From: Catajapyx aquilonaris
Taxonomy: Eukaryota
Direction: 5' to 3'
DNA length: 20,000 nucleotides
NCBI GenBank assembly: GCA_000934665.2
Contig: JYFJ02001872.1
Span: 47,771-67,770 of the forward strand
Shown: piece after piece, positions 751-20,000 of the stretch
Layout: every line of letters begins with the position of its first letter
Position numbering within the stretch: the stretch's first letter is position 1
Program-made: the position numbers and the translations under genes
The notes under the pieces: generated by a model
What the model saw: the letters and a program-made list of their open reading frames with translations, nothing else
Told to the model about the DNA's origin: nothing
The model's database searches: none

Positions 751-3700
751 GCCTCGTGAGCAGGTGCGGAACTTGTTTGAGTGCTTTTGTGAGGTGGAGG
801 CAGCAAAGTCATCCACAGAGATGCCTCGAATTGTTAAAAAGTTCCCAGAAAGCTACAAACAACATGAAGTGCTCAAATCTGTCCCACAATTTTCTTTCCC
901 ATGCGAGTTCCCTAAGCCAAAGTGAGCTTTCATCTACTTAATACTGACATCTTCAATACTTTCAGTGTGTAACAAATTATTTCTTTTACTGTAGTGATGT
1001 GGTACAACATTTTTCATTTGTCCTCACTAACATTGACTCAAAGTGGACATTTGGCTTCTGCCGCTTGGCCCCAGGGCCAGCAACAGCTCTGGTCATCCTC
1101 AGTTTCCTACCATGGCATGAAGTTTTTTACAAGTGAGTCATCATAAGAATGCAGGGTTTCTGAAAAAATAGACTATGTTTGATGGAATGGGTGTGCATTT
1201 TTTGCAGGCTGCTGAACCAATTGGCAGAGCTTACTCAACCCAGGTCAGTGAGTCACCCAGATGTCAATCCAGTGTGGACCTTCCTGGAAGCCCTCAACCG
1301 TGTGTCTGTTCCTGAACCAGGGGGTACACTTCAGGTTCCATTTGAAAAAGAAGTTAAGGTGTGTTATTGTGTTTACTTGTAATTAAGAATTTTCACAAGC
1401 AATAAAAGTAAATTGTGCAGAACATTACAGTAACTTTTAACACTGTGTGCTCTGTGAAGGTAAATGTTGTAAGTCATGAGGTACATTATTAAATACTTTT
1501 GTTTAAAGACAACATCCAGAGCATTGATTGAGCAGTGTCCCAAAGTCAACAAGATCTCTTACGTGCTTGTTGTGGACAGAAATTCCCATTGCCACACTGT
1601 TGTGCAATCTTTTCCAAAATGGGATTCAATGTTTTATGTTAAAAGTAATTCCAGTGTAAAAATTGCTTTAAATGGTTGTGTGCTTTCTTTGCAGATCTTT
1701 ACATGTAACTGTCCAGATGAGTTTTCTTTACCAAGTATACCAGAAAGTGTGAGTATATGATCCTATGTCGTTAATTTGGTCAAAAATTTTAATGTGGACT
1801 AAATAGGGGATTTTAAACATTTTATGCATTTTGACACAACTCCCAGGACATGTCATGTCACAAAACTCATTAGCTTTTTAAGAAGGGTGGAAAGGTTAAA
1901 CGATGCTCCATGTCAGACAAACGTATTTTTCCAAGTAATCTCTGGAGAAAAACAATTTGAGCGACTATCATAGAGAAAGTTATTGATGGGCAGTCTGTAA
2001 CTTCTACTTAAATAATATTTCTTTTCAGCGCAACTTGACCGAATACGTGAATGCCATTGAGGTGTCCAACATGCTGGCAATCTTTGCATCCCTCTTGTTT
2101 GAGCGTCGAATACTCGTGGTGTCAAGCCGCTTATCTCGCTTGAGCGCTTGTGTACAGGCTGCCAATGCTCTCCTGTACCCCATGCATTGGCAACACATCT
2201 TTATCCCAGTGCTTCCTGCAGCCCTGCAGGATTATCTTCTTGCTCCAATGCCTTACTTGATTGGGGTACCATTACCAATCTGGAAGAGGGTTAGAAAGTC
2301 AGAGCTGGGTGATGTTGTCGTTGTTGATGCTGACAGGAATCGGGTAGACACCCCCTTCCAGGACGTTGAGAGTTTGCCTCCAGAAGTGGTTTGTAGTATA
2401 TGTGCAAATGTTTCATGGATATCTAGTTTTGGTTGTGACTAGCTGACAGTTAGTTAAAAATATAACAATTACTTTACTTCCCATCGTGGCTTTTCCCTAA
2501 AGAAGGGTGCCGCAATAACAGGAAAGAGCATAAACGCTTGCTTCCTCTATACCTCATACTGTCATACATAAAATCTAGAACACTCCTTAGGAGTGCCCAG
2601 AAAACAATAACAATGACAAGTATATCAGTATGATATTGGAGAGGGGGCTAGAAAGAGGAAATGTGGGATGGAGGATCAGGAAGCAGGAGTGGGAGGGAGG
2701 GTAATAATTGATGAGAAGGATTCTGATGAAGTGTGTTATAAGGATGATGTAGAGTAGCAGTCGTCACCTTTTTTGTTATTGCTGAACCCTTCCTTTAATG
2801 ATGGTGAAGCAGTGGCAAGAGCCACTTATATAATGAGGCAGCTGTGTAGGGTATGTTTCGTTCACTTTCAAAATTCTCCTACCACCCAGACAGATATCCT
2901 GATCAACCTTGAGATGCCTGCCATTAGTTGTTATTAGCCTGCTTCTGAGAAATGATCTGAATCCATTTAAAAGGGCTTTATTTCTTGAAAGGTGGCATCA
3001 TTTCGAAGACGTCTTCGCAGTCCTGACAGTCTCCTGAGGGATGGTGTGGCTCGAGCTTTTTTGAGAGCCCTGGTACAGCTTATAGGCGGGTACAGAGATG
3101 CGCTACGCTTCCATCAAGGAGCCAAGATCACCTTTGACCAAGAGCTGTTTGTATTATCCAGGCCATCGAATCTCCAACCTTTTCTACGATCCATGTTACA
3201 CCTCCAGATATTCCAGCAGGTAGGGTAGTCATTCTTAGATGCACCACTTTCAGTACTAACATTTTATTCTTACAGTTTGTAGAGGAGCGACTGGATATTC
3301 TGAACTCAGGACAGGGCTTCTCTGATGAATTTGAACTTGAGGCATACCGATACTCAGAGAAGGAAAGCTCAAAGTTAAAGCAGCAATATCGGGAATGGCT
3401 TAGTACAGTGAGGAAAGAAGGTGGAGCTTTTCTCAAAAATGTTAAAAACAAGGTAAGGGGTGATGACTTGATTGGTCTTGGCAGTTGGCATGGGTAGTGC
3501 ACGTTTTTGCTAGGATGGGTTGTTGATATGTTTGCTTTTTTTGTTCTTGTTTGTTTTCTACTTTTTTTTCCCAGGCCAATCCTGCAGTCAAGTCAGCTGT
3601 TAAGACTGTAAGTGTGGCTTTTTGTTTGGGGACCTATATTGTTTAGACTACTGGAAAGTCACTTGTTTTGGACGTATTATGAATTATGATGTGCTACTGT

Positions 3701-6700
3701 AATTTTAGTATATTTTACAATGCATGGATTCAGTGAGCAAGATTTATTTTATGAGATTTTGTTGAGAGATTTTTACCTCCTGCTGCTGACTGACATTTTC
3801 ATATTGCATTGAGAATACTCAGGCTTGTCATTTATTAAATACAAGGGCTAATTGAAAAGTAATTTACAACTTTTTAAATTCCAACGCTTCATTACAGAAA
3901 CTGATGCTGGCATGTACATATAAAAGGGCAAGGGTGGAATATTCGTCCCACTGCTAGTTACTTCTAACTTAGCATTACCATTGCAACACTGGTACACTGC
4001 TAAGTTAGCAGTAACTAGCAGTGGGACAAAAATACCACCCCAAGTCTTTCTCTAATTTAAGACATAGTCACCATCCACTTTGATGCACTTGTCTTACCGT
4101 ACATTAGTTTTTCCATGCCCCTGCAGAAAAAGCGTCAGGTTGGCTGGGCAGGCAGCCTCTTTCACTTCCTTGATGTTGCTGAGGTCTTGAGAGGCCAGTA
4201 CTTCTTTCTTGGCCCAAGATATGCGAGACCATGGTTAAGACCATCATTTCGTACTAATGAAGAGGCACCTGGCCGATCAGCACTTCAGCAACATGGAGCA
4301 AGTGAAAGAAGCCATACGCCACTGGTTTCTCATCCAGCCTGACCCTTTTTTCTGCAGGGGCATGGTAAAACTAGTGTCCCAAATGCACCAAAGTGGATGG
4401 TGACTTTTTCTAAAAGTAGAGAAAGACTTGCCATTTCATATGTATATGTCAATTTCAGTTTCTGTAATGAAACTTTGGAATTTAAAAAGTTGTCAATTAC
4501 TTTTCGATTAGCCCTTGTATTTTTGCCACTGTTCAGTTCATTCCTCAGGTGGTCTTGTTTGCTTTGTTGCTATTTCAGTAAATAAGGACGCATCGAGGTT
4601 GTTCCTAGATGCCAGCTGAGTATGTACTATTGGCATGGAAATGGTTCGCACACTTGTCTGGACCATTTCTGTGTTGATAGTTGTGATTTTGTGAACAATA
4701 TAGTACAGAGCTGGACATTTGTTTAGTGTACATGAGATGATGTTGCACAGTAGTGCCAGCTTATTATAAACTGTCAACTGGACACAATATCCTAACTAGC
4801 GCTGCCAAGAGCTAATAACTCTTGGCGCTGCATGTTGCAGTTGATGCTTTAGCATTTAATAGGAGCAGCTAATTACACAAAATTGTAATTAGTTGACTTG
4901 ATTGTATTTGTAACAATCCTGTCATACATATGAACCATGAAACTGATCATACTCTCAAAGTGGGAGTTGTTATTTTTATTATAACCCATTTGGGGTTGTC
5001 ACCAATATTGAGAAATGATGCCAAGGTGGGAGTTCATTTTTTATAATTTTCACTTGTTCAGATGAATTTTCAACTTATTACTGAATTTTGATCATGTCTT
5101 TTCCATGTTCATCGCACATGTAGGTAAAGGAGCGAGGCAAGTCAGCCTATAAGGACATCAAGTCAAGGTTCAAGGATCTGCACAGCCGAGATGAGTTTGA
5201 TGCAGTCCCTTCCCATGACCCTATGCCCTTCGCCATGTCTAGTTCCAAACCCCACTCAGCTCCCTCCTCTCCCACTGTCAAGCAGAGGCCCCTCACAATA
5301 GCTACAACCTCTTATAGGAGGGAAGGGCCACCTTTCAGGCCACCCAGACCTACTCACAGGTTAGAGAAAGTTCTTCTCACAATTCTTTTACCATTTCGTG
5401 AGTAAATATTGTGATTTACAACCAGTTAAGTGATCCACTATCAGGCGGATTTAGCACTTGTGGTAGTCTTAGATGTAGTACTTTGCAACTCATCCTTCAG
5501 CCAGTATTATATACAAGTGCTTGTTCTAGTTTAATTTTTCTGTGTTGCCATGTCGCATAGGTCAGATATGTTGTCCTGGAAAAACTGCTGCAAAATCAGT
5601 ATCATTTTTTTCAGGTATTCAATTTTGTGCTTCCATTGAAACAACTTGCTAATACTGTTGTGTTATTATTTGTCTTGTGGCAGTCCTGGACATTACAATC
5701 CATTAGATGCTACCTCTCCTGGAACCCCTGGCAGTCCCGAGGGAGCATCCAGTGCGAGTGGTTCTGGATCTGAACTGCACCCTCCTTGCCTGAACCTCGA
5801 CCTCATGAATGATATGCAGGACTTTCTCTTCAGGACAGTCCCCTCGTCTTCCTCCTCTGCTTCCTCACTGGGACCTCCTGTTGATCGATCCGTAAGTATT
5901 CGTTGCCTTGCTCATCAACCTCTCACATTTCCCCTTTTAATTATGTGTTTCTCTATCTTCATACAACTACACTGTTTGTCTTTGTTTATCAACCTATCAA
6001 AAGCACTTGTGTGTATTATTTATATGCACTGGGAACTAAGACTGGAAAGCTGCTTGATTGTCTAAAATGTAGAAATTCTTTCTGTACAGAGTTATAGGAT
6101 GTAATAATTGTAATGTTAATAAAATTTTGTCTAATACATCTTCTATGGTCAAGTCGTCAGCTTTCTACTTTTATGGATGTTTGTATGTAATTTTTATTGA
6201 GCATTGGTCTCATGTTGTAGGCATGAGGTCTCTACACATATTATTTTGTGATGAGCTTTTTAGCATAAATAGGAAGCTGTTTTAGGGCACCTTCTGATGC
6301 AGTCCCTGAAAGACATTCAAACATGATTTATTATTATGCCAATTGGCTATTATCATCATGTGATAAGGTAGTATGGTTGTTGAGGTAAAAACCAACTGCT
6401 CTCCAGTCTGAGGTTTCACAGACCACATACGTCTTGCACTTTTTTCTTCTGTCCATTTCTTACTGCCTACATTGTTGTGCGGATGGTTGAGGGTGCTGGG
6501 GGGAAACCCCACCTCTTGCAGCTGAAACCCACCCGAAGCTTCGACAGCTCCACCAGTAAGGATGCTTTTGGCCAGCGTCCCTTCCTTGCTGTGTCTACAG
6601 ACACTCCTCTCTCATCCGAAGCCCTACTACTGGCCCCTGCCCCTGAACCTACTGCCATTTCTTCTCCGTCTTCCCTCTCGCCAATCCCACCACCTTCTCC

Positions 6701-8288
6701 TCCTCCAAGACCCACCAGAAGACGGCAGGTGGGCAGCACTCATGATGGAATTTCTTCCAAGGTAAGGGCTTTTCTGTCTGGGCGCCTTAATTGTGATTTT
6801 GCCCTTTATTTTGAGCTTTTAGTGTTCCACCGTGTAATACTTTCTCTCCTATTTTTTGTTCAGGAAAGGACTGGTACGTCACACGTAAATATTGTGGTGT
6901 CCCTGTCGAGTTGACTCGCGTGTGGCTTGCATGACTTGTGTGTAGACGTGCTTGAACTTACCTCATGTACATTTTAAATTCCGATAGATTAGAGGAGTAT
7001 TTCATAGCCAGCTTATGAAAAGAGAATGTAAGTTACATAACAGTTAGGCTGGGTTGCAGCGTGGGGATTTTTCTAGAAACCTGGTGTTACCATTGCAATT
7101 AATTGTTGCTTAACAAATCATAACAATAGTAATCATGGGGTTTCGAGTGAAACTCTCGATGGTGCAGCCCAGCCTTAGAGTTAGTGGAGTGTTGAAAATT
7201 GTGATTCAATAAAGCAGTTGATAATGACTTCACCTATTTATATGTAGGTGAGCTCTTATTATGTGTAATACTGAACAAAAGTCACTAAAAACTGCAGATC
7301 TAATGTAAGAATTAAAGCTTAAAATTTTTTACAGAAGTATCAAGTCAAATGTTGTAAAGTTGTGTGCAAGGTAATAAGTGGTACAAGCTTTGAGCCACTG
7401 ATGTATTCTGCATGTTTTCAAGACTCCAGCTCACTGGAAAAGGACTAAGAAGCTTATTGCAACTAAAATTGGTTTTGAGCAGGACAACTTGTGTAGATCA
7501 GTTTGCATATTGCAAGTAAGAATAAATTAAGGAGTTCTGCTGTACCTGACCCAGAGGCATTTACTTGGCTACTGTGCAAAGCGACAAGACCCTGAAATCA
7601 AACAAAACAAGAAAAATAGTAGCTCAGAACAAGGCTTTATGTATTTTTAAAATTGGTATACTGCACAGTACCAGTAAAATTCATGGAATGTAAAGGACGG
7701 TTATTGACAGTGCCAACCTGCACGTGTTTCATGAGTTGTGGTACATGTACCCCAGCCTACAGGTAGCTCCTTCCATGCTAGGCCAGTACTATATCTGGTT
7801 CTAGTACTGGGGCCTTCATTGGATTGAAACTGCCCAGTGTTAATTTACCTGTTAAATGTGTAGTGTAGTAATGCTTATGTGTGCAAACATGCCTGCAGGA
7901 GCACACAGTGACCACAGGCGACCTGATTCGCCTGGATTCAAGCTCAGCAGAGGAGGAATTCGACCCACTCCATCCAAGCAGGCGGCGCCCTTCGGAACCA
8001 TCAAGCAGCTTGAGGGTCAACCCAGCATACGACCTGCACCTGGTTCCACCCAGGGCCCACTCCACTCAGCCTTACTCCAAGGGCGATGCAGACCTGCTGA
8101 GGGAGTACGGGCTGGACTTCAGCCAACTCCACCTATCCGGACCAAGCGGAAGTCACGTGGAGGCAACAACCAATGGGGCAGGAGTCAAGGTGCGTCAGCC
8201 AGCACAACTGGACCCATTTGCACAGTTGGTCGACTTGACCGAAGCAAGGAAGGGTTTGCACAAAACCAACTGGACAACATTTGATTGA
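751..8288 (+). CDS. DENND1: DENN domain-containing protein 1 (connecdenn, Rab35 GEF), 5'-partial. Exons 751-921, 995-1132, 1208-1358, 1695-1748, 2029-2388, 2992-3219, 3276-3452, 3575-3607, 5124-5359, 5684-5891, 6522-6761 (alternative donor 6728), 7899-8288
   Basis: GT-AG introns with consistent phases join uDENN (LFECFCEV..FP..F.FPCEF; QHFSFVLTNIDSKWTFGFCR; SFLPWHEVFYKLLN), cDENN (LPSIPESRNLTEY; LFERRILV; LYPMHWQHIFIPVLP; APMPYLIG) and dDENN (FLRALVQLIGGYRDAL; QIFQQFVEERL..GFSDEFE). A Ser/Pro-rich tail follows with endocytic motifs DLIRLD, FDPL, DLL, DPF and C-terminal WTTFD* (WxxF-acidic). Start exon not seen in the window. Confidence 0.93.
3842..4517. mobile_element. Mariner-derived fold-back (palindromic) non-autonomous element with TA target-site duplication
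   Basis: Ends are TA|caagggctaattgaaaagt ... acttttcgattagcccttg|TA. The arms are inverted copies almost to the centre (about 4230). The right arm translates LMKRHLADQHFSNMEQVKEAIRHWFLIQPDPFFCRGMVKLVSQ/CTKVDGDFF*K*, resembling a mariner transposase C-terminus. Confidence 0.88.
3932..4040. mobile_element. Palindromic MITE (PIF/Harbinger-like) nested in the left arm of the mariner fold-back; CAA target-site duplication
   Basis: gggtggaatattcgtcccactgctagttacttctaacttagca pairs with tgctaagttagcagtaactagcagtgggacaaaaataccaccc. It is flanked by caa (3929-3931, 4041-4043), and the opposite host arm has a single CAA (empty site). Confidence 0.88.
7047..7174. mobile_element. Tourist/PIF-Harbinger-like MITE with TTA target-site duplication
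   Basis: TTA|ggctgggttgcagc ... ggtgcagcccagcc|TTA, with degenerate inverted similarity extending about 50 bp inward. Confidence 0.82.
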
Positions 8289-9991: not shown

Positions 9992-12900
9992 TTAGAAGGC
10001 CTTCAGTGCTTCCATTGCTCTAGATATCCTGGCCAATTCTCCATCCAATTGTGTTGCCTTCTCTGAATTTGCTTTGCGAACTTCCTCAGGCACCTTCGTC
10101 TCATAGTCTGCCACCTGCATTGCTTGTAAAAGCCGTCCCAGTTGTGAATCTAGCTGTTCCTTCTTGCGCTCCAGCTTCTGCTGTTCCTTCGCTGCATCAA
10201 CCAATCCCTGGAAATTTTCCATTGTTTACTAGAACTAACTTAAGAGGACACAATTTACTAACCTGCAGTAATAGATGAACTTCACACTTATCTGATACAG
10301 TGACAACAGCACACCCTCCTGGAGGGTTGGCAGTGACTTCAACCTTTCCGCATGATGCAAGTGTTGCTATTGTCCCAGCATATTCATTGACAATTGATGT
10401 TGTCAACTTGTCAGAGCAGCACAGAAACACTGTGAAGGTGGGATAAAACAAAGTGCAACAGTTCTAATGCAATGCTACTTCCCACAGGATTGCATATAAT
10501 ATTCATAATCCTCCTAATTGGCATTGATACAACTGGAGTTAATTGTTCCATACATTAGGTTACTAGCTTCATTGTGTACTTACGATCAGTTTTCACTTTG
10601 TTTGGCAGCACATAATCAGATTTGGTGGACCGAACAGTGTGAACAATCTTCTGAACAAACTCGACCTCTTGTTCAATGTTCGCATCACTCCAGTGATACT
10701 GTTGGAAAAGTAAAGACTTAAAATTGACCCCTCTAACAAGGCATATGTGCCTACCTGGGTCTCCTCTGGATACTCTGCAACACCTATGCTGTTGGCTGCT
10801 TTATCACGTGGTAGCCGTTGATACAGCTCCTCACTCAGGAAGGGCATAAATGGGGATATGAGCCTAAGACCCACGTCAAGGCAGATCCAAAGCACGTTGG
10901 ACTCGAGAGTTGTATCGGCCCCTGATTGGAAGTGAGGCTTAAGGTACTCCAGGTACACATCACACAGCTCATACAACCAGAAGTTGTAACAGGCAGTGGT
11001 TGCTGCATTCAGATCATAGGCTGAAAACCCTTCATTGCAGGTGCGCACAGCCTCACTCAGCCTGCTCAATATCCACCGGTCCATTTTGGTCAGCTTGGAA
11101 TTTAGGCCAGAATTGGACAGGTTTGCTTCCATATTCCGCTTCCAGCGAGCTAGGTGTGGCAGATGATCCACTGGTAAGTTTCCAATGGACAAGAAGGTGT
11201 CCGAGTCCAGTTTGGATGCTGTCCATCCCTGCAGGTAGCTCTGTTCTGCCAACTTATCATTCAGGTTCTTGAGCTCACTTTCAGTTACATGGCCGCTGGT
11301 TTCCTGTGATGCTGTTATGTGTTTAGAGTTGGGGCAGAAAGAAGGAGGCAGTACTGAGAGAGCAAAGCGAGTTGCATTCCAGAGCTTGTTGCAGAAGAAA
11401 CGGTAACCTTGTACACGCAAGACGTCCAAGTTGATGTCACGTCCTGTTAGAGGTAAGATGGAAAGTGACCTTCAGAAATGCATTTTGTAAATAAAACTTT
11501 ACATAAGGATCCACATCCTAGCATAAAATATGACACCTACCTTGCGAGGTAATAATAATAATAATTAATAATTGATACCCCATTATCAGCCCATTGGGCT
11601 TTATTAGGGGGGGATTTCTCCCAATTTTTTGTCGGGAACTCTTTCCATTTTTACTATACTTTTTCATCGGAATTGAGGCAAGGATAGGTAAGGAAGGAAG
11701 CGGCTGTGGCCTATAGCTACCTTGCGAGGTGTATGCACAGAGGGCAAATCGAAGTGCATCACTGCCACATTCTGGGATACCATTAGGGTAGTCCTGCTTC
11801 TGACCTTCCATTGCCCTTTTCACTTCAGTAGGATCCAGGTTTCCACCTTGCAGCTGGGCATGTAATCCCTGCCAGACATGACAATGTTAGCATGAGAATC
11901 TAATTTTGAACACCTGTGGTCACACTCACTTCTAAGGAAATTCCTGTGATGACATCCAGAGGATCAATGATGTTTCCCAGTGATTTACTCATCTTTCGCC
12001 CATGGGCATCTCGTACCATAGCATGGAGATATACCTCTCTGGAATTGCAGCCAAGTTACCAAGGAAGTCATGTTGAAATCAATACGAGTGGGTAAATGCT
12101 CACTTGAAAGGCAGTTGTCCCATAAGTTTCTGTCCAAAGAAGACCATTCTTGCAACCCAAAAGAAAATTATATCATGCCCTGTCTCAAGAAGAGTCCCAG
12201 GGTAGAAAGCTTTCAGGTCTTCCGTCTAAATGGCAAATATTATTCAGATTTAATAGGCTGTCATGATAGTAATTCATAAAACAAATGGTAGATACCTGCT
12301 CAGGCCATCCCAAAGTTGAAAAGGGGAAGAGACCTGAGGAAAACCAAGTATCCAGTACATCACCATCCTGCTTGAGACTGATCTTGTCTGGAGACACTCC
12401 AAATTTAGCTGCAGCCTCTGTCTTGGCTTCCTCTTCTGTGTGCCCACTAACCCAGTACTTGTTGTCAAGTTCCTGTGAGAGATCCAGCATTTAATATTAC
12501 ATCATGCTTGCCAGCAGCAGTACTTACATTTCCTGCAGGAACTGAAGGGTCATTCACAGTGACAAAGTAAGCAGGGATGCGATGGCCCCACCACAGCTGA
12601 CGTGAGATACACCAGTCCCTACGAATAAAAGTAGAGAAAGATTGGAGGAAGAATGCACCTCTATACTGTATTGACATAAGATCTCCATTGACATTTTTTG
12701 CTGAATATTTTGACACTCCTTACCTATACCGTGCATAAGAATTATTCTGCTTCTGCGCTTGTAGAACTCATGGGTAAAAGCAATGAAAAACCGAACGCAC
12801 CTGATGTTCTCCATCCAGTGAAACCAGGTCTTTTTGTGAGTGTCAGGAATAATTCGAAGTTCTCCTGATTGGACTGCTTGGATGGCATTGGCAGCCAAAT

Positions 12901-15586
12901 CATCACAGCGAACATACCTGCAAGTATATGGTAACTGAATGTGATACTGAAACTGAGAGGAATGTTACTCATATTGAGGTCAAATCTCTCCTATCTCATA
13001 AAGTCACTGTCACAACCTTTACTTAATATTGAGTTGTAATTTACTCAAGCTCTGAACTTGTCATACTGGGTGGAAGTGTGAAAATCTGAAATTTCTCAAC
13101 AGCTGTTTGCTATTTGCTTGGTCAATGTCAATACCACTGGGATGAATGGAGCCTACGTAAAGACTTATTAAATAATGAGCCACATATTGTGGACTCAATT
13201 TCATACAGCCACAGGTGGAAAAGAAAGTGACCAGTGACAACTGCATAAAATATCTGAGAGCTTTGTATATCACAGATTCCGCAGTGTGACTGGGCCTCAT
13301 CTCTGCCGTCAGTTGTAAGAAGACCGTAACTCAAAAACTAGTAAGGGCGAAAGTCGCATGCATGCCGTGCACTTATCCACCCTGGCTCAGAGGGGATTAG
13401 TGCAGGGCGTGCATGCGACTTTCGCCCGTAGTGGTTTTCGAGTTACGGTCTTCTTACATCTGACGGCAGATCTGAGGCACAAGAATTTGATCAAAATGGA
13501 ATACTCACCACTGAGGCTTGATAAGGGGCTCAACAATATCTTTGGAGCGGCTGCATACGGGAACCACCATTGGATTGTCCTTGGTATCTCGATATAAATT
13601 TAAGTCCTTAAGGGCCTTCAAGACAGCCTTGCGAGCATCAAACCTCTTCATACCCTGTTTAAACAAAATACTGAATGAAGATTCTATGCAATCAGGGAAT
13701 TAAAATAAATTCAGTTTAAAGCTACTAGCTAATTTTTTGCAGCCTTATGAATAGTATCACTGAAATTAAATAATATTAATCACTCCTCAATAACCTAATG
13801 CCATAAAGCAATAAAAGTGTACTATCGGAAATGATACTCACTTTGAACTGCTCACATTCACCAATGATGTTACCCTCATCATCTAGGATGGTGATGAAGG
13901 GCAAATTGTTCCTCATTCCCACCTCATAGTCATTATGGTCATGAGCAGGAGTTATCTTGACTGCACCAGTGCCAAATTCTTTGTCAACAAACTCATCACA
14001 AATTATGGGCAGACGTCTGGAGCAGAATGGATGCTTCACAAATTTTCCATGCAGGTGCTTGTAACGGGGATCATCTGGATGTACAGCTACAGCAGTATCG
14101 CCGAGCATGGTTTCTATTCGAGTAGTGGCCACTACAACTTCACCTTCTTCTCCATCTACCTGGTATGCAAAGGACACCAGGACCCCAAATTCAACCTTTG
14201 TTGCATAGCCTGGCACAGACAGTAGAGTACGTCCAGGGAGCTCCTGCTTGTCCACCTCAATGTCAGAGATGGCAGACTTGAGGGTGCAAGACCAGTTGAC
14301 CAATCTGGCACTCCTGTAAATGTCACCTGAGTGATGCAAGCGCACAAATGCCTCCCTAACAGCACGGGATGGTGCAGGATCCATGGTAAAGCAGACACGG
14401 TCCCAGTCCAGAGAGGAACCCAAAATGCGCAGTTGGTGATAGATGTGATCTCCCTTACTAGAAAAGAAAAATTTCTTTGTAGCCCATTGGTGCAAAAACT
14501 GTGGGGCTTTGGAATGACCCATGGGAATAATACCAACAAAACTGGACAGGCATTGAGCTGCGAGACTTAAATTTCCATCTTGGTATGACTGCTCCTCAAA
14601 TGTGAGAACCTGAGAAATCTAAACCTTTCATTGTGTGGTGTTTGTCCTTATCTACAATTCGAATTTTAGCATGACTGCAGCAAAATCTTTGGTATTTATT
14701 GCGTGAGGCAAGATGATGCTCATGTTGCAGTGATATTTCTCCAAGCTTGGCATACTTTTAACTTACTCTTTTTTCCAATCCCAGACTTTCTGCACAAATT
14801 TCTCTCTTCCTAGGTCGTGTCGTGTGAGTTTTTCCTCTTTCCACAAACGTTTCTCCACCACTACCTGGGTAGCAATTCCAGCATGATCACAACCAGGAAC
14901 CCATAGCGTGGTCCTTCCTTTCATTCGGTGCCATCTCGTCAGAGCATCCTCAATGGAATTAGTGAGCGCATGGCCCAGATGGAGACTACCAGTCACATTG
15001 GGAGGAGGGATAACCATCACAAACTTGCCCTTTGGGTTCTCCTCACCAATTTTCTTGCCCTGAAGATCATGGAAAAAAAACACATTGGGCTGATTCGGAG
15101 TTGATTTAATTGTGATCATGCATTGTATAACTTGGTACTGCTAATTTAAGGAATAGATTATCGTACATGAACTTGTGTGAAAGCCTGCATACCCCATACT
15201 CTGGCTTGAAGAATCCTTCCTTCTCCCACCAGGCGTACCAGGCAGCCTCCACAAACTTGGGGCTGTAAGCATCAGGCATGGCCCCCGAGACGTCCTTCTT
15301 CTCTCCTGGGCGAGTGTTGCCCTGGTACACAGCAGCCTCCTCCTTCTTCTTGGGCTCCCTCTTCGGCTTACTCTGAAAACCACATGCTCATCATCAGTAT
15401 GCCGGATAACGGCAAGGAGTAACACCCACCCACCTCCACAGATTTATTATCCTTTACAGGCTGGGCCACCTTCTGCTCCTGCTTCTGCTTGAATTTTTCC
15501 ATCTTGGCCATCTTCTTGGCCTCCTTCTCCAACTGCTTGGCCGTCTTGGGAGGCTGCTGCCCCTCAGCTTCGCCAACACCGTTCAT
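9992..15586 (-). CDS. ValRS: Valyl-tRNA synthetase (cytosolic type). Exons 15586-15434, 15372-15193, 15059-14767, 14457-13842, 13654-13509, 12917-12801, 12618-12528, 12472-12296, 12225-12104, 12038-11930, 11868-11721, 11443-10755, 10698-10584, 10429-10263, 10207-9992
   Basis: Class I aaRS motifs: [14 protein letters not shown] (HIGH), [94 protein letters not shown]. Lys-rich N-terminus [12 protein letters not shown] and a C-terminal coiled coil. All junctions are GT-AG and phase-consistent. The true start may lie upstream (ATG at 15798). Confidence 0.96.
11551..11716 (-). mobile_element. 5'-truncated SINE/retroposon with a (TAT)n tail and a 14-bp TSD, inserted at a ValRS exon-intron junction
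   Basis: Exact direct repeat ctaccttgcgaggt at 11537-11550 and 11717-11730. The minus strand begins ctataggccacagccgcttccttcc (resembling a core motif I recall from insect tRNA-SINEs), contains AATAAA and ends in (tat)n. Confidence 0.85.
13291..13481. repeat. 191-bp near-perfect palindrome (fold-back MITE-like element or hairpin) in a ValRS intron
   Basis: Arms 13291-13384 and 13388-13481 are ungapped reverse complements (about 81/94 matches by manual count) around a 3-nt loop. Confidence 0.92.
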
Positions 15587-16398: not shown

Positions 16399-19300
16399 TC
16401 AGAGGGGTATGAGTCTAGCTTGCTGGCTCCCTGATGGCAACGGGGAATCATTAACGTCAAATAAATCATTAGAAGAGTCATTGTTCAACTTATTGGGCAC
16501 ATTTCTGTCACTGGTCACGTCAGTCCTGTGTTTTGGTGGAAGCCCAGGTGCTGGAGGGGGTGTATCATCATATGCTGGGTTTGCAAATGGGATCACAGGC
16601 TCTGATTCAATGTCATTGCTGAACCGAACCCAATGTGGCTTGATCTGGCTGGCTTTGGTCAAGAATCGCTTCCCATAAGCAAAACAGGCTGCACCAATGA
16701 GGATGAGTATGAGAAGCACAATCACAACTACTGCTCCTGCTGAAATTGATGATCCTGATTCCTCTTCTGATTTGGTTGGGTCGAGCTGACCACTTGGTAC
16801 ATCAGTGCTGGTGACAGGCCACTCTGGATTTTCAGTTCTAGGTCCCGTCCCTTCAGTTGCATTCTGAAAAAAATTAGAAATGAAATAAAGCCAACAGTAC
16901 CAATATTGTATCTATCGATTACGCCAGTGATTTCTCGTGTTATAATTTTAAATGACAATGCAAAATTTATGGCAAGTTAAATTCTAATCTTTAACCATTA
17001 CTAATGCATTAAACACTCCAATTGGCTCTTTGAGAAGTCTACATTAGAATATATGCAGCTGATTTGAGTGCCAAGAAATTGAACTTACATTGAAAGTGGT
17101 TGAAGCACATTTACTGGGTCTTCCTGCCATAGGTGCTGTACCATCTGGACACATGCACACTCCACCCTCAGGTTTCAGCAAGCAGAGACGCTCACAGTTC
17201 TTCTTCCGGCACCCATTCATGCCCCAAGGCTGCCTTGACCTCTGCATTACAGTGACTGGTCCTGCAGCCCTCAAGTTGACTTCCAGTACTGTGCATTCCT
17301 CACCTTCCTGGGTCTCTCTGCAGCTTGCAAGAGACCCAGCATCACTATTCAACCAGATCGCTTTTTCTTCAAACAGGACCAGATTTGATGGCTGTGATAC
17401 GTGTGTGGAAAATAAGGTCCTGCGAAGGTGGCCATCCAGTCCAACTGACTCCACCATGTTGGCTCCTGAATCAGCCCAAGCTACGCGACGTAAAGGATGG
17501 TCCACTGACACTGAGGTAGGAGACGTCACCTTATGCGAGGCCAATATGCGGGTGTTCTTTCCGTCCATATCTGCAGTCCAAATGGCACCACCTTCCAGGT
17601 GATGTATTGACACCTCACTCCAGACTATGCGTCCATCCTCAGGAACCAGAGCCAATGATGTCACAGATCTTCCAACTCTCTTAGTTAGTGTGGCACAGTC
17701 ACCAACCTGTCCCACAGTAGCGCACACTGCAATGGAATCTCCAGACGAGTTCTTTGACACATAGTACAGGTTTGAAGTGATCCAATCGAGTGCTATGGCA
17801 GCTGGTTGCTTCAAATCCCCCAGCAGTAGATAGCTCTGACTATTGCCCCTGCTTCTGAGTGCTGCATGACGGACTTCACCAGTTTCTGGGACACTCCATA
17901 ACACATCGCCTGTTTCAGCCCGAAAATCCAATCCACCAACGTTGGATGTTTGGGGCAACAGCATTGACCATGATTGCCCTGATGAAATGTGGAGGCTCCA
18001 TATTTGGCTGCCATTTGTGTATACAACCTTGGCTTCGGGACCTAATGTAGGAAAATAGCATAAGTTAAACACTCACCAACTTATGGACTTAATCAGCATT
18101 AAGACAAATCCAGATAATTGCAAGGTAAATTTCCACTATTTAAGAACGACTGTACCTAGTGCTATGCAGGTATGTTCATCTGGTGATAGCTGATATTCAG
18201 GAGCACACCAGCACTTGAATCCACCCCAGGTGTTGTTACAGTACTGAGAGCAAGGGGAAGGATGTAAGCGACACTCATCCACATCAGCACAGAACTTGTT
18301 GTGCCTAAGGCGTAAACCAGGCTTGCAAGAACACACTGGATCTACAGGAGTAGGTCTACATCCACCTTCACATCCTCCATTGGGAGGCGTGAAACAAGCT
18401 TCAGAGCAACGGCCTCCTTCATCGGATCCATCGATGCAGTCCATGTGGTCGTCACAAACAGCCCCCAGTGACACACACCCACCAGATCTACAGCTCCATT
18501 CGCCTTCTCGGCATGGGGTCACCCTGGTGTTATTTCTAGCTATGGGCTTGTTGATCAAAATGCAGCGGGGATCAGATTCATCTGAGTTATCACCACAATC
18601 GTCTTGTCCATCGCAGAACCAGTCCATAGGGATACAACGGCGTCTGTTGCGACATTGAAACGAGCCAGTCGCGCAAATGCACTGGGTCTCATCTTGCCCA
18701 CCGCTGCATTCTGATGTGCCATTGCATTTAGCAGCATCGGGCACGCATTCAAATGAAAACGGTGAGCAGCGGAAATATCCAATCTGACACGTAGGAAATA
18801 TTGTCGCAGGATATGAGCTGGTCTGTGCGGTCACCTGGTCGCAGCCAATCTCATCTGATCCATCACTGCAGTCATCTTCACCGTCACAGCGCCACCGTAA
18901 CGTGATACAGTGGTTATCACCATTGCAACGGAAACGATTTGGTGCACACTCAACTGGGGCCACTCGTGTGCTGCAGTTCCTTTCATCAGACCCATCAAGA
19001 CAGTCTTCCTCTTCATCGCACTTCCATCTCGAGGGTATGCATGCACCATCGTCACACATGAATTTCCTGGGTGGGAGGCAAGATTCTGGGGAAATGCATC
19101 CAGCTTCGTCTTCTGATCCAGGACAGTCTGGTTTCCCGTCACACTGGTCCCTGGCTGGGATGCAAGTCCCGTCAGTGCAGGGGAAATGTGTTGATGCACA
19201 TTCAGGTGGAGGTCCACAGGTCAAGCCATCTGATGTCCTCTCCAGCCCATCAGGACATGAGCAGGTGCGTCCACCAGGATGCATGAGGCACAAGTGGGAA

Positions 19301-20000
19301 CACTGGCCATTATTACGGCTGCAGGGATGCTCACTTGGAATGACAGCCTCGGGTCGCATATTTCTCCATGCCGATGATACACGGATCCAGTATGCCTCTC
19401 TACCAGGATTAGCCACCTGCACTGTCGGACCGTCCCGATCAGCACTGGGCAGTGGCAGACTGCGTACTAGTCCACCGCTGCGCCTCTCTGTCCAATAAGC
19501 TGTGCTCGCCATTATCGCGATAGACACTGGTTGTGACATCCTTTGGCGAACTGGACGCCTTTTGGATCCATCCACATCGACTTTCTCAAGCATGCCTGTG
19601 GTTGTATCAACCCAGTAGAGGGCCTGAGCCACGTGATCAAAGGCCATGCTGACAGGTTCCCTTATAGCAGCACGTACTATTGGCTTTCTGGCACCTCCGT
19701 CCATTTGCATCCTTTCTATCTTAGCTCCTCTTCCAGCAATCCCAAAGTACAAAAGGCCCAAGTTGGGTGCCAGGGCAAGAGACACTGGCCTTCCAACAGT
19801 GTGTTCTAATAATACTGCCCTGCTTCTCTTGCCTTTAACTGGTTCCAGCTGAATGACCTCAATGGTGAGACGCTCCGAGTCAGCGAAATAGAGCATTCGC
19901 CCAGTCGTGTCCACATCTAAGGCTTCCACAAATCCAACTTGCCCAGGAGGAATGATTACTTGTCTTGATCCATCCCTCAGCGATACTGAGACAATAGAGT
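16399..20000 (-). CDS. VgR: Vitellogenin receptor (yolkless-like LDLR family), 5'-partial. Exons >20000-18156, 18041-17089, 16863-16399
   Basis: Order of domains: YWTD propeller (LYFAD, LYWVD, AYWTE), EGF, six LDLa repeats (e.g. CDGEDDCSDGSDE), EGF and Ca-binding EGF (DVDEC..CNNTWGGFKC), a second degenerate propeller, EGF, Ser/Thr/Pro-rich stalk, TM helix (AVVVIVLLILILIGAACFAY), and a cytoplasmic tail with FANPAY (NPxY) and a terminal RLIPL. The frame is open to the window edge. Confidence 0.85.

Follow-up and report, generated by a model that had tools for sequence, protein, structure and literature searches.

Can a tRNA synthetase be coupled to the elongation factor complex through a domain grafted into its interior rather than onto its end? 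This question is raised by the valyl-tRNA synthetase (ValRS) gene of Catajapyx aquilonaris, which lies on the minus strand at 9992..15586 of the DNA analysed here, a stretch of 20,000 nt from contig JYFJ02001872.1 (assembly GCA_000934665.2, positions 47,771 to 67,770; hereafter the window). A first-pass annotation, made from the letters alone, had pointed to an insert in this enzyme that resembles the N-terminal domain found in the elongation factor subunit eEF1B-alpha, a domain similar to the C-terminal part of glutathione S-transferases (GST-C-like), and had suggested that the insert tethers ValRS to elongation factor 1 (EF1) or to the multi-synthetase complex. Judged by sequence statistics, the extra ~70 residues are homologous to the N-terminal (GST-C-like) domain of eEF1B-alpha. 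We predict that the insert docks onto eEF1B-gamma and thereby tethers ValRS to eEF1B, and we put the probability of this prediction only slightly above one half (roughly 0.55).

The gene encodes a class Ia, cytoplasmic-type ValRS of 1111-1112 aa in 15 exons. Its open reading frames (ORFs) read HLGH, the HIGH motif, in the exon at 14767-15059, and the ORF translations place KMSKS in the exon at 11930-12038; the editing domain and the C-terminal coiled coil were also read from minus-strand exons. The Pfam family Anticodon_1 was found with E 1.3e-27, and the ValRS of T. thermophilus (1gax_A) was matched by profile with E 8.6e-214. Identity to arthropod ValRS was ~60-66% over ~1000 aa, and a homologue-guided exon layout of the gene covered residues 15-1049 of cockroach ValRS.

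The insert is located ~770 residues into the protein, in an exon of 689 nt (10755..11443, minus strand; boundaries refined to CT..AC) that carries the last portion of the catalytic/stem-contact region, then the insert and then the beginning of the anticodon-binding domain. This exon is contained in the ORF 10593..11471 (minus strand), and its in-frame translation (P0001) corresponds to 10755-11441. Two anchors on the same strand delimit the insert: NKLWNATRF upstream (11364..11390), in which N, K, W, N and A are invariant in the ValRS alignment, and MDRWILSRL downstream (11058..11084), where Anticodon_1 starts. As the first-pass annotation had stated, 93 codons (11085..11363, minus strand) separate the anchors in one open exon, equivalent to ~24 codons of normal linker and ~70 extra. 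Overall, the anchor spacing without an insert is ~24-29 residues; by a single measure, from NKLWNA to D-x-W-I-L, it is 27-28 residues, compared with 97 in the window. The peptide quoted in the annotation is likewise present in the exon translation, and the coordinates given there, 11120-11291, cover a segment of that frame ending in WKRNMEAN. The placement of the insert inside the anticodon-binding domain had to be corrected: position 1 of the Anticodon_1 profile is the D of MDRWIL, and the insert therefore lies immediately ahead of the helical anticodon-binding domain, at the junction.

Expression was judged from one public run (X1) of unrecorded library type, kept as contigs, which were taken as transcript evidence because they are spliced. 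Record 1 of this run (3329 nt) matches 10755-11442 throughout, free of gaps and differences, and has a splice joint at either end of the insert exon (10698/10755 and 11442/11720). Since a spliced contig retains this segment whole, the insert is exonic, as had been supposed. No joint skipping the insert was present among the joints listed for the contigs of the run, which cannot show a minor isoform, and by eye we found no in-frame GT..AG pair that would restore a linker of normal length. In the window genome the insert is fused into one exon with both flanks and is included in the only transcript contig seen.

The identity of the insert was investigated by sequence searches. With the 88-aa insert (P0002) as query, phmmer gave a sole significant match in the PDB, 5dqs_D (E 1.1e-4), in which insert residues 28-77 aligned with chain residues 13-62 at 34% identity to the human sequence. 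Chain D of 5DQS is the N-domain of human EF-1-beta (eEF1B-alpha), crystallised together with eEF1B-gamma's GST-like domain. With a profile of 38 insert-bearing ValRS this chain was hit again (E 6.6e-8, chain residues 8-76), and 5dqs_D was the only non-synthetase among the 60 matches shown of that search. In a set of 1.84e9 representative proteins, phmmer obtained 12 matches at E<=1e-3, which Pfam divided into six repeat proteins matched in many weak pieces and six Arc1p_N_like/GST-C modules. One of these six modules belongs to a complete eEF1B-alpha (P0290; EF1_GNE + EF-1_beta_acid), which was matched at E 9.7e-4 with 40% identity, and BLASTP aligned it with the insert at 45% identity over 44 residues, ungapped. 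Another is the N-terminus of a CysRS (P0287; Arc1p_N_like + tRNA-synt_1e), which is 43% identical to the window insert. When the insert alone was searched against longer proteins by a word index, 58 candidates came up, none of which scored, a result that reflects limited sensitivity and not absence; the ESM Atlas provided no more than leads, namely GST_C clusters and, at 0.92, an Arc1p_N_like cluster. The resemblance to the eEF1B-alpha N-domain, first noticed as a pattern of residues, is thus backed by significant statistics to both 5dqs_D and P0290. Downstream of the module there is no EF1_GNE or acidic region, and ValRS sequence stands on both sides of it in the same exon; the module is a domain homologue, not an eEF1B-alpha gene. 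As a side observation, two other proteins have two eEF1B-like modules each: in P0282, of 252 aa, they are arranged in tandem, and in P0285 they are accompanied by a Helitron helicase-like N-domain, so that P0285 is possibly a captured gene fragment.

The predicted fold points in the same direction. AlphaFold2, run with an alignment, predicted three helices (P0278 residues 32-44, 55-64 and 73-88) at a confidence (pLDDT) >90, with low-confidence tethers on both sides; on these models and the 5dqs_D match, the putative folded eEF1B-alpha-N-like module extends over 11106..11285 (minus strand). In a Foldseek-independent search of 48,161 chains, 5dqs_D took rank 3 (Z 7.6, root mean square deviation 2.1 A) with 62 of 87 residues aligned and 29% identity, the highest of the top rows. 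In the Foldseek-based comparisons the top matches were nearly all GST C-terminal domains or GST-like domains of synthetase complexes, and Foldseek with a model of the whole exon returned synthetase anticodon domains only. Alignments to GST chains comprise approximately 60 residues and invariably fall in their C-terminal part; neither a thioredoxin-like N-domain nor a complete GST is present, and a canonical glutathione S-transferase was ruled out on these grounds. The Z values alone are unremarkable, yet together with the sequence statistics they agree with a GST-C-like module that stands alone and is of the eEF1B-alpha type.

We then compared the segments equivalent to the known binding surface. 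According to passages of Bondarchuk et al. 2022 (PMC9458455), eEF1B-alpha in 5DQS touches eEF1B-gamma through the loop D21-V29 and the helix C50-I59. The window aligns EQSYLQGWT (11220..11246, minus strand) with this loop (DKSYIEGYV), and a second segment (11130..11159, minus strand) with helix 3, C50-I59 (CHALRWYNHI). Over 41 other ValRS inserts, the mean column entropy was 1.95 bits in the contact-equivalent segments and 2.51 bits in the rest. Contact-equivalent columns contained G in 38, W in all 41, R in 32 and L in 34 inserts, and the D equivalent to D34 was also invariant (41/41). In alignment, this conservation pattern is compatible with a retained binding surface; many of the residues concerned are also core positions.

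The first-pass annotation had taken the module for a graft of this lineage. This view has to be given up, as ValRS of barnacles, copepods and many insect orders bears the same module in the identical position. A protein search with the insert exon, which is biased towards insert-bearers, produced 120 hits, 117 of them measurable: 93 had >=90 residues between the anchors, 20 had 27-28, and four were intermediate, the three of these that were examined being pattern mis-hits inside inserts. The three unmeasured hits visibly bear the insert. An unbiased search with the conserved upstream exon added 101 proteins, of which 20 were fragments or unmatched and 81 were measured (by a slightly different measure). 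Here 71 proteins had 25-38 residues between the anchors, five were mis-measured, and only five, from four Hemiptera and Blattella, contained the module. Identity in the conserved exon was 74-81% to almost all bilaterians, with no close relative. One protein of the comparison, the ValRS-like P0177 of Centruroides sculpturatus (1182 aa), scored 623 bits against the 205-aa query where all others scored ~350-390, which suggests that its gene model contains the conserved exon more than once.

At the same site, the insert occurs in Orthoptera, Phasmatodea, Blattodea, Hemiptera, Thysanoptera, Phthiraptera and Hymenoptera, and crustacean carriers are the barnacle Amphibalanus and the copepods Tigriopus and Acartia. 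The ValRS sampled from chelicerates, myriapods and the ostracod Darwinula have no insert, nor have those sampled from molluscs, an annelid, a brachiopod, a priapulid, a sea star, a coral and vertebrates. Comparison of the ValRS orthologues thus shows the insert to be widespread in the databases, a circumstance that reduces its novelty, as the annotation itself had foreseen. In four insect species, the annotated isoforms X1 and X2, which are database gene models, differ solely by one block of 111-131 aa at the insert site.

Two unusual groups of sequences were seen among these ValRS proteins. Four of the 38 insert-bearers (P0080, P0084, P0105 and P0111; 1208-1214 aa, copepod-like in the tree) carry an N-terminal WHEP-TRS domain (best E 6.4e-22), which to our knowledge is not listed for ValRS. 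P0090 (1184 aa), one of the proteins with long anchor spacing, has an unrelated insert of 116 aa at the same site, composed of repeated KDD...IQSMMA.MATKDD units without an eEF1B-like motif, suggesting that this loop of ValRS tolerates insertions.

To place the window enzyme, a ValRS tree was built from 52 rows, the window and 51 hand-picked taxon representatives out of 221 proteins, by a quick search with SH-aLRT support only; columns filled <70% were dropped, thereby removing the insert. The order obtained was chelicerates, myriapods and then pancrustaceans. The window ValRS formed a separate branch in a clade (support 98) with barnacles, copepods and insects, and Darwinula fell outside. Most simply, the module was gained once, close to the root of this clade, and in insects was later lost or came to be spliced optionally. 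A single gain is argued for on the shared insertion site and the host tree only. In a tree of 48 modules over 75 columns, 23 of the 45 inner branches were open and the modules of eEF1B-alpha and CysRS were interleaved with the ValRS inserts; this tree cannot decide between one and several acquisitions. Moreover, the window module scores 34-40 bits against eEF1B-alpha and CysRS modules and <=24.8 bits against other ValRS inserts. These higher scores, together with the open module tree, leave room for a re-acquisition or conversion of the module.

A known route of ValRS into the EF1 complex runs through the N-terminus, and we therefore looked for a GST-like extension there. The start codon is located at 15584..15586 (minus strand). 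A Lys-rich stretch directly after the ATG at 15586 matches the consensus N-terminus of 37 arthropod ValRS, and the window enzyme has 1111-1112 aa compared with 1271 aa for Anolis ValRS. An N-terminal GST-like extension (~200 aa) is absent from the window ValRS; the RNA contig reaches 12 nt upstream of the ATG and stops there, so that the 5' end of the transcript is unmapped. The earlier statement that no such extension is seen agrees with the ATG at 15586, the arthropod-type N-terminus and the end of the neighbouring gene at 16399.

What might the insert do? The one known function of its domain family is docking onto eEF1B-gamma, and the same function is the most likely one for the insert. The ~70 residues sit in the loop between the catalytic/stem-contact part and the helical anticodon-binding domain, where they make up a three-helix module that folds independently and is held by flexible tethers. 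This module would plug ValRS into the site of eEF1B-gamma that is normally used by eEF1B-alpha. ValRS would thereby come to lie next to the exchange factors and eEF1A, and Val-tRNA could be handed over directly. Such docking would constitute a second, independent route to a ValRS-EF1 complex, and in insects optional inclusion of the module could create bound and free pools of the enzyme. The wider proposal is more tentative, and we rate it somewhat short of even odds: that in pancrustacean ValRS an internal eEF1B-alpha mimic occupies eEF1B-gamma, convergent with the GST route of deuterostomes, and that insect splicing switches between free and EF1-bound pools.

Several of our observations weigh against docking onto eEF1B-gamma. 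Use of the eEF1B-alpha site would require competition with eEF1B-alpha, and the contact-equivalent residues of the window are changed at several positions (Y28->W, Y56->K, N57->R and H58->N). Against the Pfam family Arc1p_N_like (PF21972), the window insert scores 19.7 bits at a cut-off of 27, compared with 35.8 bits for the true eEF1B-alpha P0290, and the family is detected at E<=0.01 in just 11 of the 38 insert-bearing ValRS. The structural Z of 7.6 for 5dqs_D is tied with ranks 1-2, which are generic GST-C/GST-like chains, and lies in a range that the tool calls middling; Foldseek on the insert model gave GST C-terminal domains only, at E 0.16 or worse, and did not list 5dqs_D. The dipteran, beetle and caddisfly ValRS in the sample have no insert, and the module is dispensable for the enzyme, as insect X2 isoforms lack it. 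Finally, expression is derived from a single run of contigs that is blind to minor isoforms.

Some of these points also bear on the rival that survives best, which we nevertheless regard as unlikely: that the insert has no protein partner and is a tolerated decoration of a surface loop, tuning tRNA handling, stability or localisation, or nearly neutral. The insert is optional in insects and absent from several sampled holometabolan orders, its sequences diverge fast (others score <=24.8 bits against that of the window), and P0090 has an unrelated 116-aa insert at the same site; yet D and W never vary among the inserts of barnacles, copepods, insects and the window, where L, N, G and R are nearly constant as well. 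All of them keep a domain that folds with confidence, which is hard to explain in the absence of selection across barnacles, copepods and insects.

Even less probable, in our view, is a docking partner other than eEF1B-gamma, namely another GST-like protein of the multi-synthetase complex (MetRS, GluProRS, AIMP2 or AIMP3) or CysRS. With such a partner, ValRS would be drawn into the multi-synthetase complex, as reported for C. elegans, and not to eEF1B. Although EPRS-AIMP2, AIMP3-MRS, Plasmodium p43, GluRS N-domains and Arc1p are among the structures nearest by Z, and the best Pfam family is Arc1p_N_like, the significant sequence matches are to the N-termini of eEF1B-alpha and CysRS and not to components of the complex. 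These components pair through full GST-like domains, whereas the module corresponds to the C-terminal-like helical part only. The C. elegans complex, as described in passages of PMC4394549, does include a ValRS without a GST domain. An artefact (retained intron, misassembly or annotation error) has hardly any claim to be considered: nothing more than the unusual exon length speaks for it, the segment is homologous to a protein domain and recurs in many independent records, and a retained intron or misassembly was rejected on the open frame and on a contig that is spliced at 12 other introns and keeps the insert with no differences.

The remaining features of the locus were as follows. The ValRS stop codon is at 9992-9994 (minus strand), and the 3' untranslated region measures at least ~990 nt, as the contig spans 9000 to the stop at 9992. 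Twelve GT..AG joints of the gene were taken from the spliced contig set, and two introns were deduced from the reading frame and GT/AG. Upstream of the insert exon, the intron (11444..11720, minus strand; a contig joint) contains a repeat element of 166 bp at 11551-11716, which is flanked by the 14-bp direct repeat CTACCTTGCGAGGT at 11537-11550 and 11717-11730 and ends in an (ATT)n-like tail on the gene strand. The target duplication of this element takes in the final 10 nt of the upstream exon together with GTAG, and the 5' splice site therefore exists in two copies, of which the transcript contig is spliced at the upstream one. The depth of run X1 over the element was 123-820, compared with ~26 for the ValRS gene, as expected of a multicopy SINE-like repeat. 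Two neighbouring genes were recognised from ORF translations only: a DENN-domain-like gene (1987-8288, plus strand) converges on the 3' end of ValRS, and an LDL-receptor-related gene (16399-19998, minus strand), ending at 16399, lies upstream of it. The latter encodes cysteine-rich LDLa and EGF-like repeats, a YWTD-type propeller, a transmembrane stretch and FANPAY near the C-terminus. Rfam had no match anywhere in the window.

In this study we describe an internal ValRS module whose nearest known counterpart is the N-domain of eEF1B-alpha (5DQS_D). The two share the three-helix GST-C-like fold, their sequence similarity is significant, and they have in common the pattern L-N-x-x-L...S-Y-(ILV)-x-G...S-x-x-D...F...(H)-(L)-x-R-W. 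The likeness to eEF1B-alpha extends, in many inserts of copepods and insects, into the stretch ...E-x-x-x-L-P-x-G that comes next. The domain is N-terminal in the exchange factor, whereas the window module is internal to a synthetase. The ValRS proteins entered in databases as isoform X1 in insects and crustaceans have the same module at the same site; the insect X1 block, of 111-131 aa, is optional, and the window module, with ~70 aa, is short like those of barnacles (96-107 residues between the anchors). One insert-bearing record is automatically named "Probable elongation factor 1-beta [Gryllus bimaculatus]", and a few carry precomputed GST_C or Arc1p_N_like matches at the insert.

Among other synthetases, CysRS has the same module as an N-terminal extension, hence also on a class I synthetase, but in a terminal position and on a different enzyme. 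In humans, an isoform of CysRS uses an extension of this kind to bind eEF1-gamma. The GST-like domains of multi-synthetase complexes (Arc1p, AIMP3, AIMP2, MetRS and GluProRS) belong to the same superfamily and include the nearest folds by Z; they are complete and heterodimerising, and no significant sequence match of the window insert to them was found. An association of ValRS with EF-1 in Artemia was reportedly the subject of work by Brandsma et al. in 1995. For this association the insert offers a candidate explanation.

Deuterostome ValRS joins EF1 via a full GST-like domain at its N-terminus that binds eEF1B-delta/beta, as set out in passages of PMC4394549 and PMC9458455, and the former, a review of 2015, states that Deuterostomia are the group to which the GST-like domain by which ValRS docks "could be restricted". 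A passage of PMC9458455 leaves open why only the synthetase for valine is wired to the elongation factor complex. If our docking prediction is true, a structurally different second tether in crustaceans and insects would indicate repeated selection for ValRS-EF1 coupling; on the wider proposal, the Artemia association would be explained and the view of ValRS-EF1 complexes as confined to deuterostomes would be overturned. Isoforms X1 and X2 of insects would then provide a natural on/off tether for testing tRNA channelling, and the old Artemia observation would gain a concrete candidate. Should the module not bind eEF1B-gamma, it would still be a clean case of a docking domain moved into an internal loop of a synthetase.

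An internal insert in ValRS was not described in the full-text literature searched, to which subscription journals mostly do not belong, nor in the passages available of PMC4394549, PMC9458455, PMC10452860, PMC4250081 and PMC11580382. As far as we found, GST-superfamily docking modules on synthetases are known, and what is new is an internal, optionally spliced eEF1B-alpha mimic in ValRS. The deuterostome and window systems have in common the enzyme and an appended, non-catalytic piece of the GST superfamily that links it, in the window by our proposal, to EF1. They differ in that the window enzyme has an internal, C-terminal-like helical module, the expected partner of which is eEF1B-gamma.

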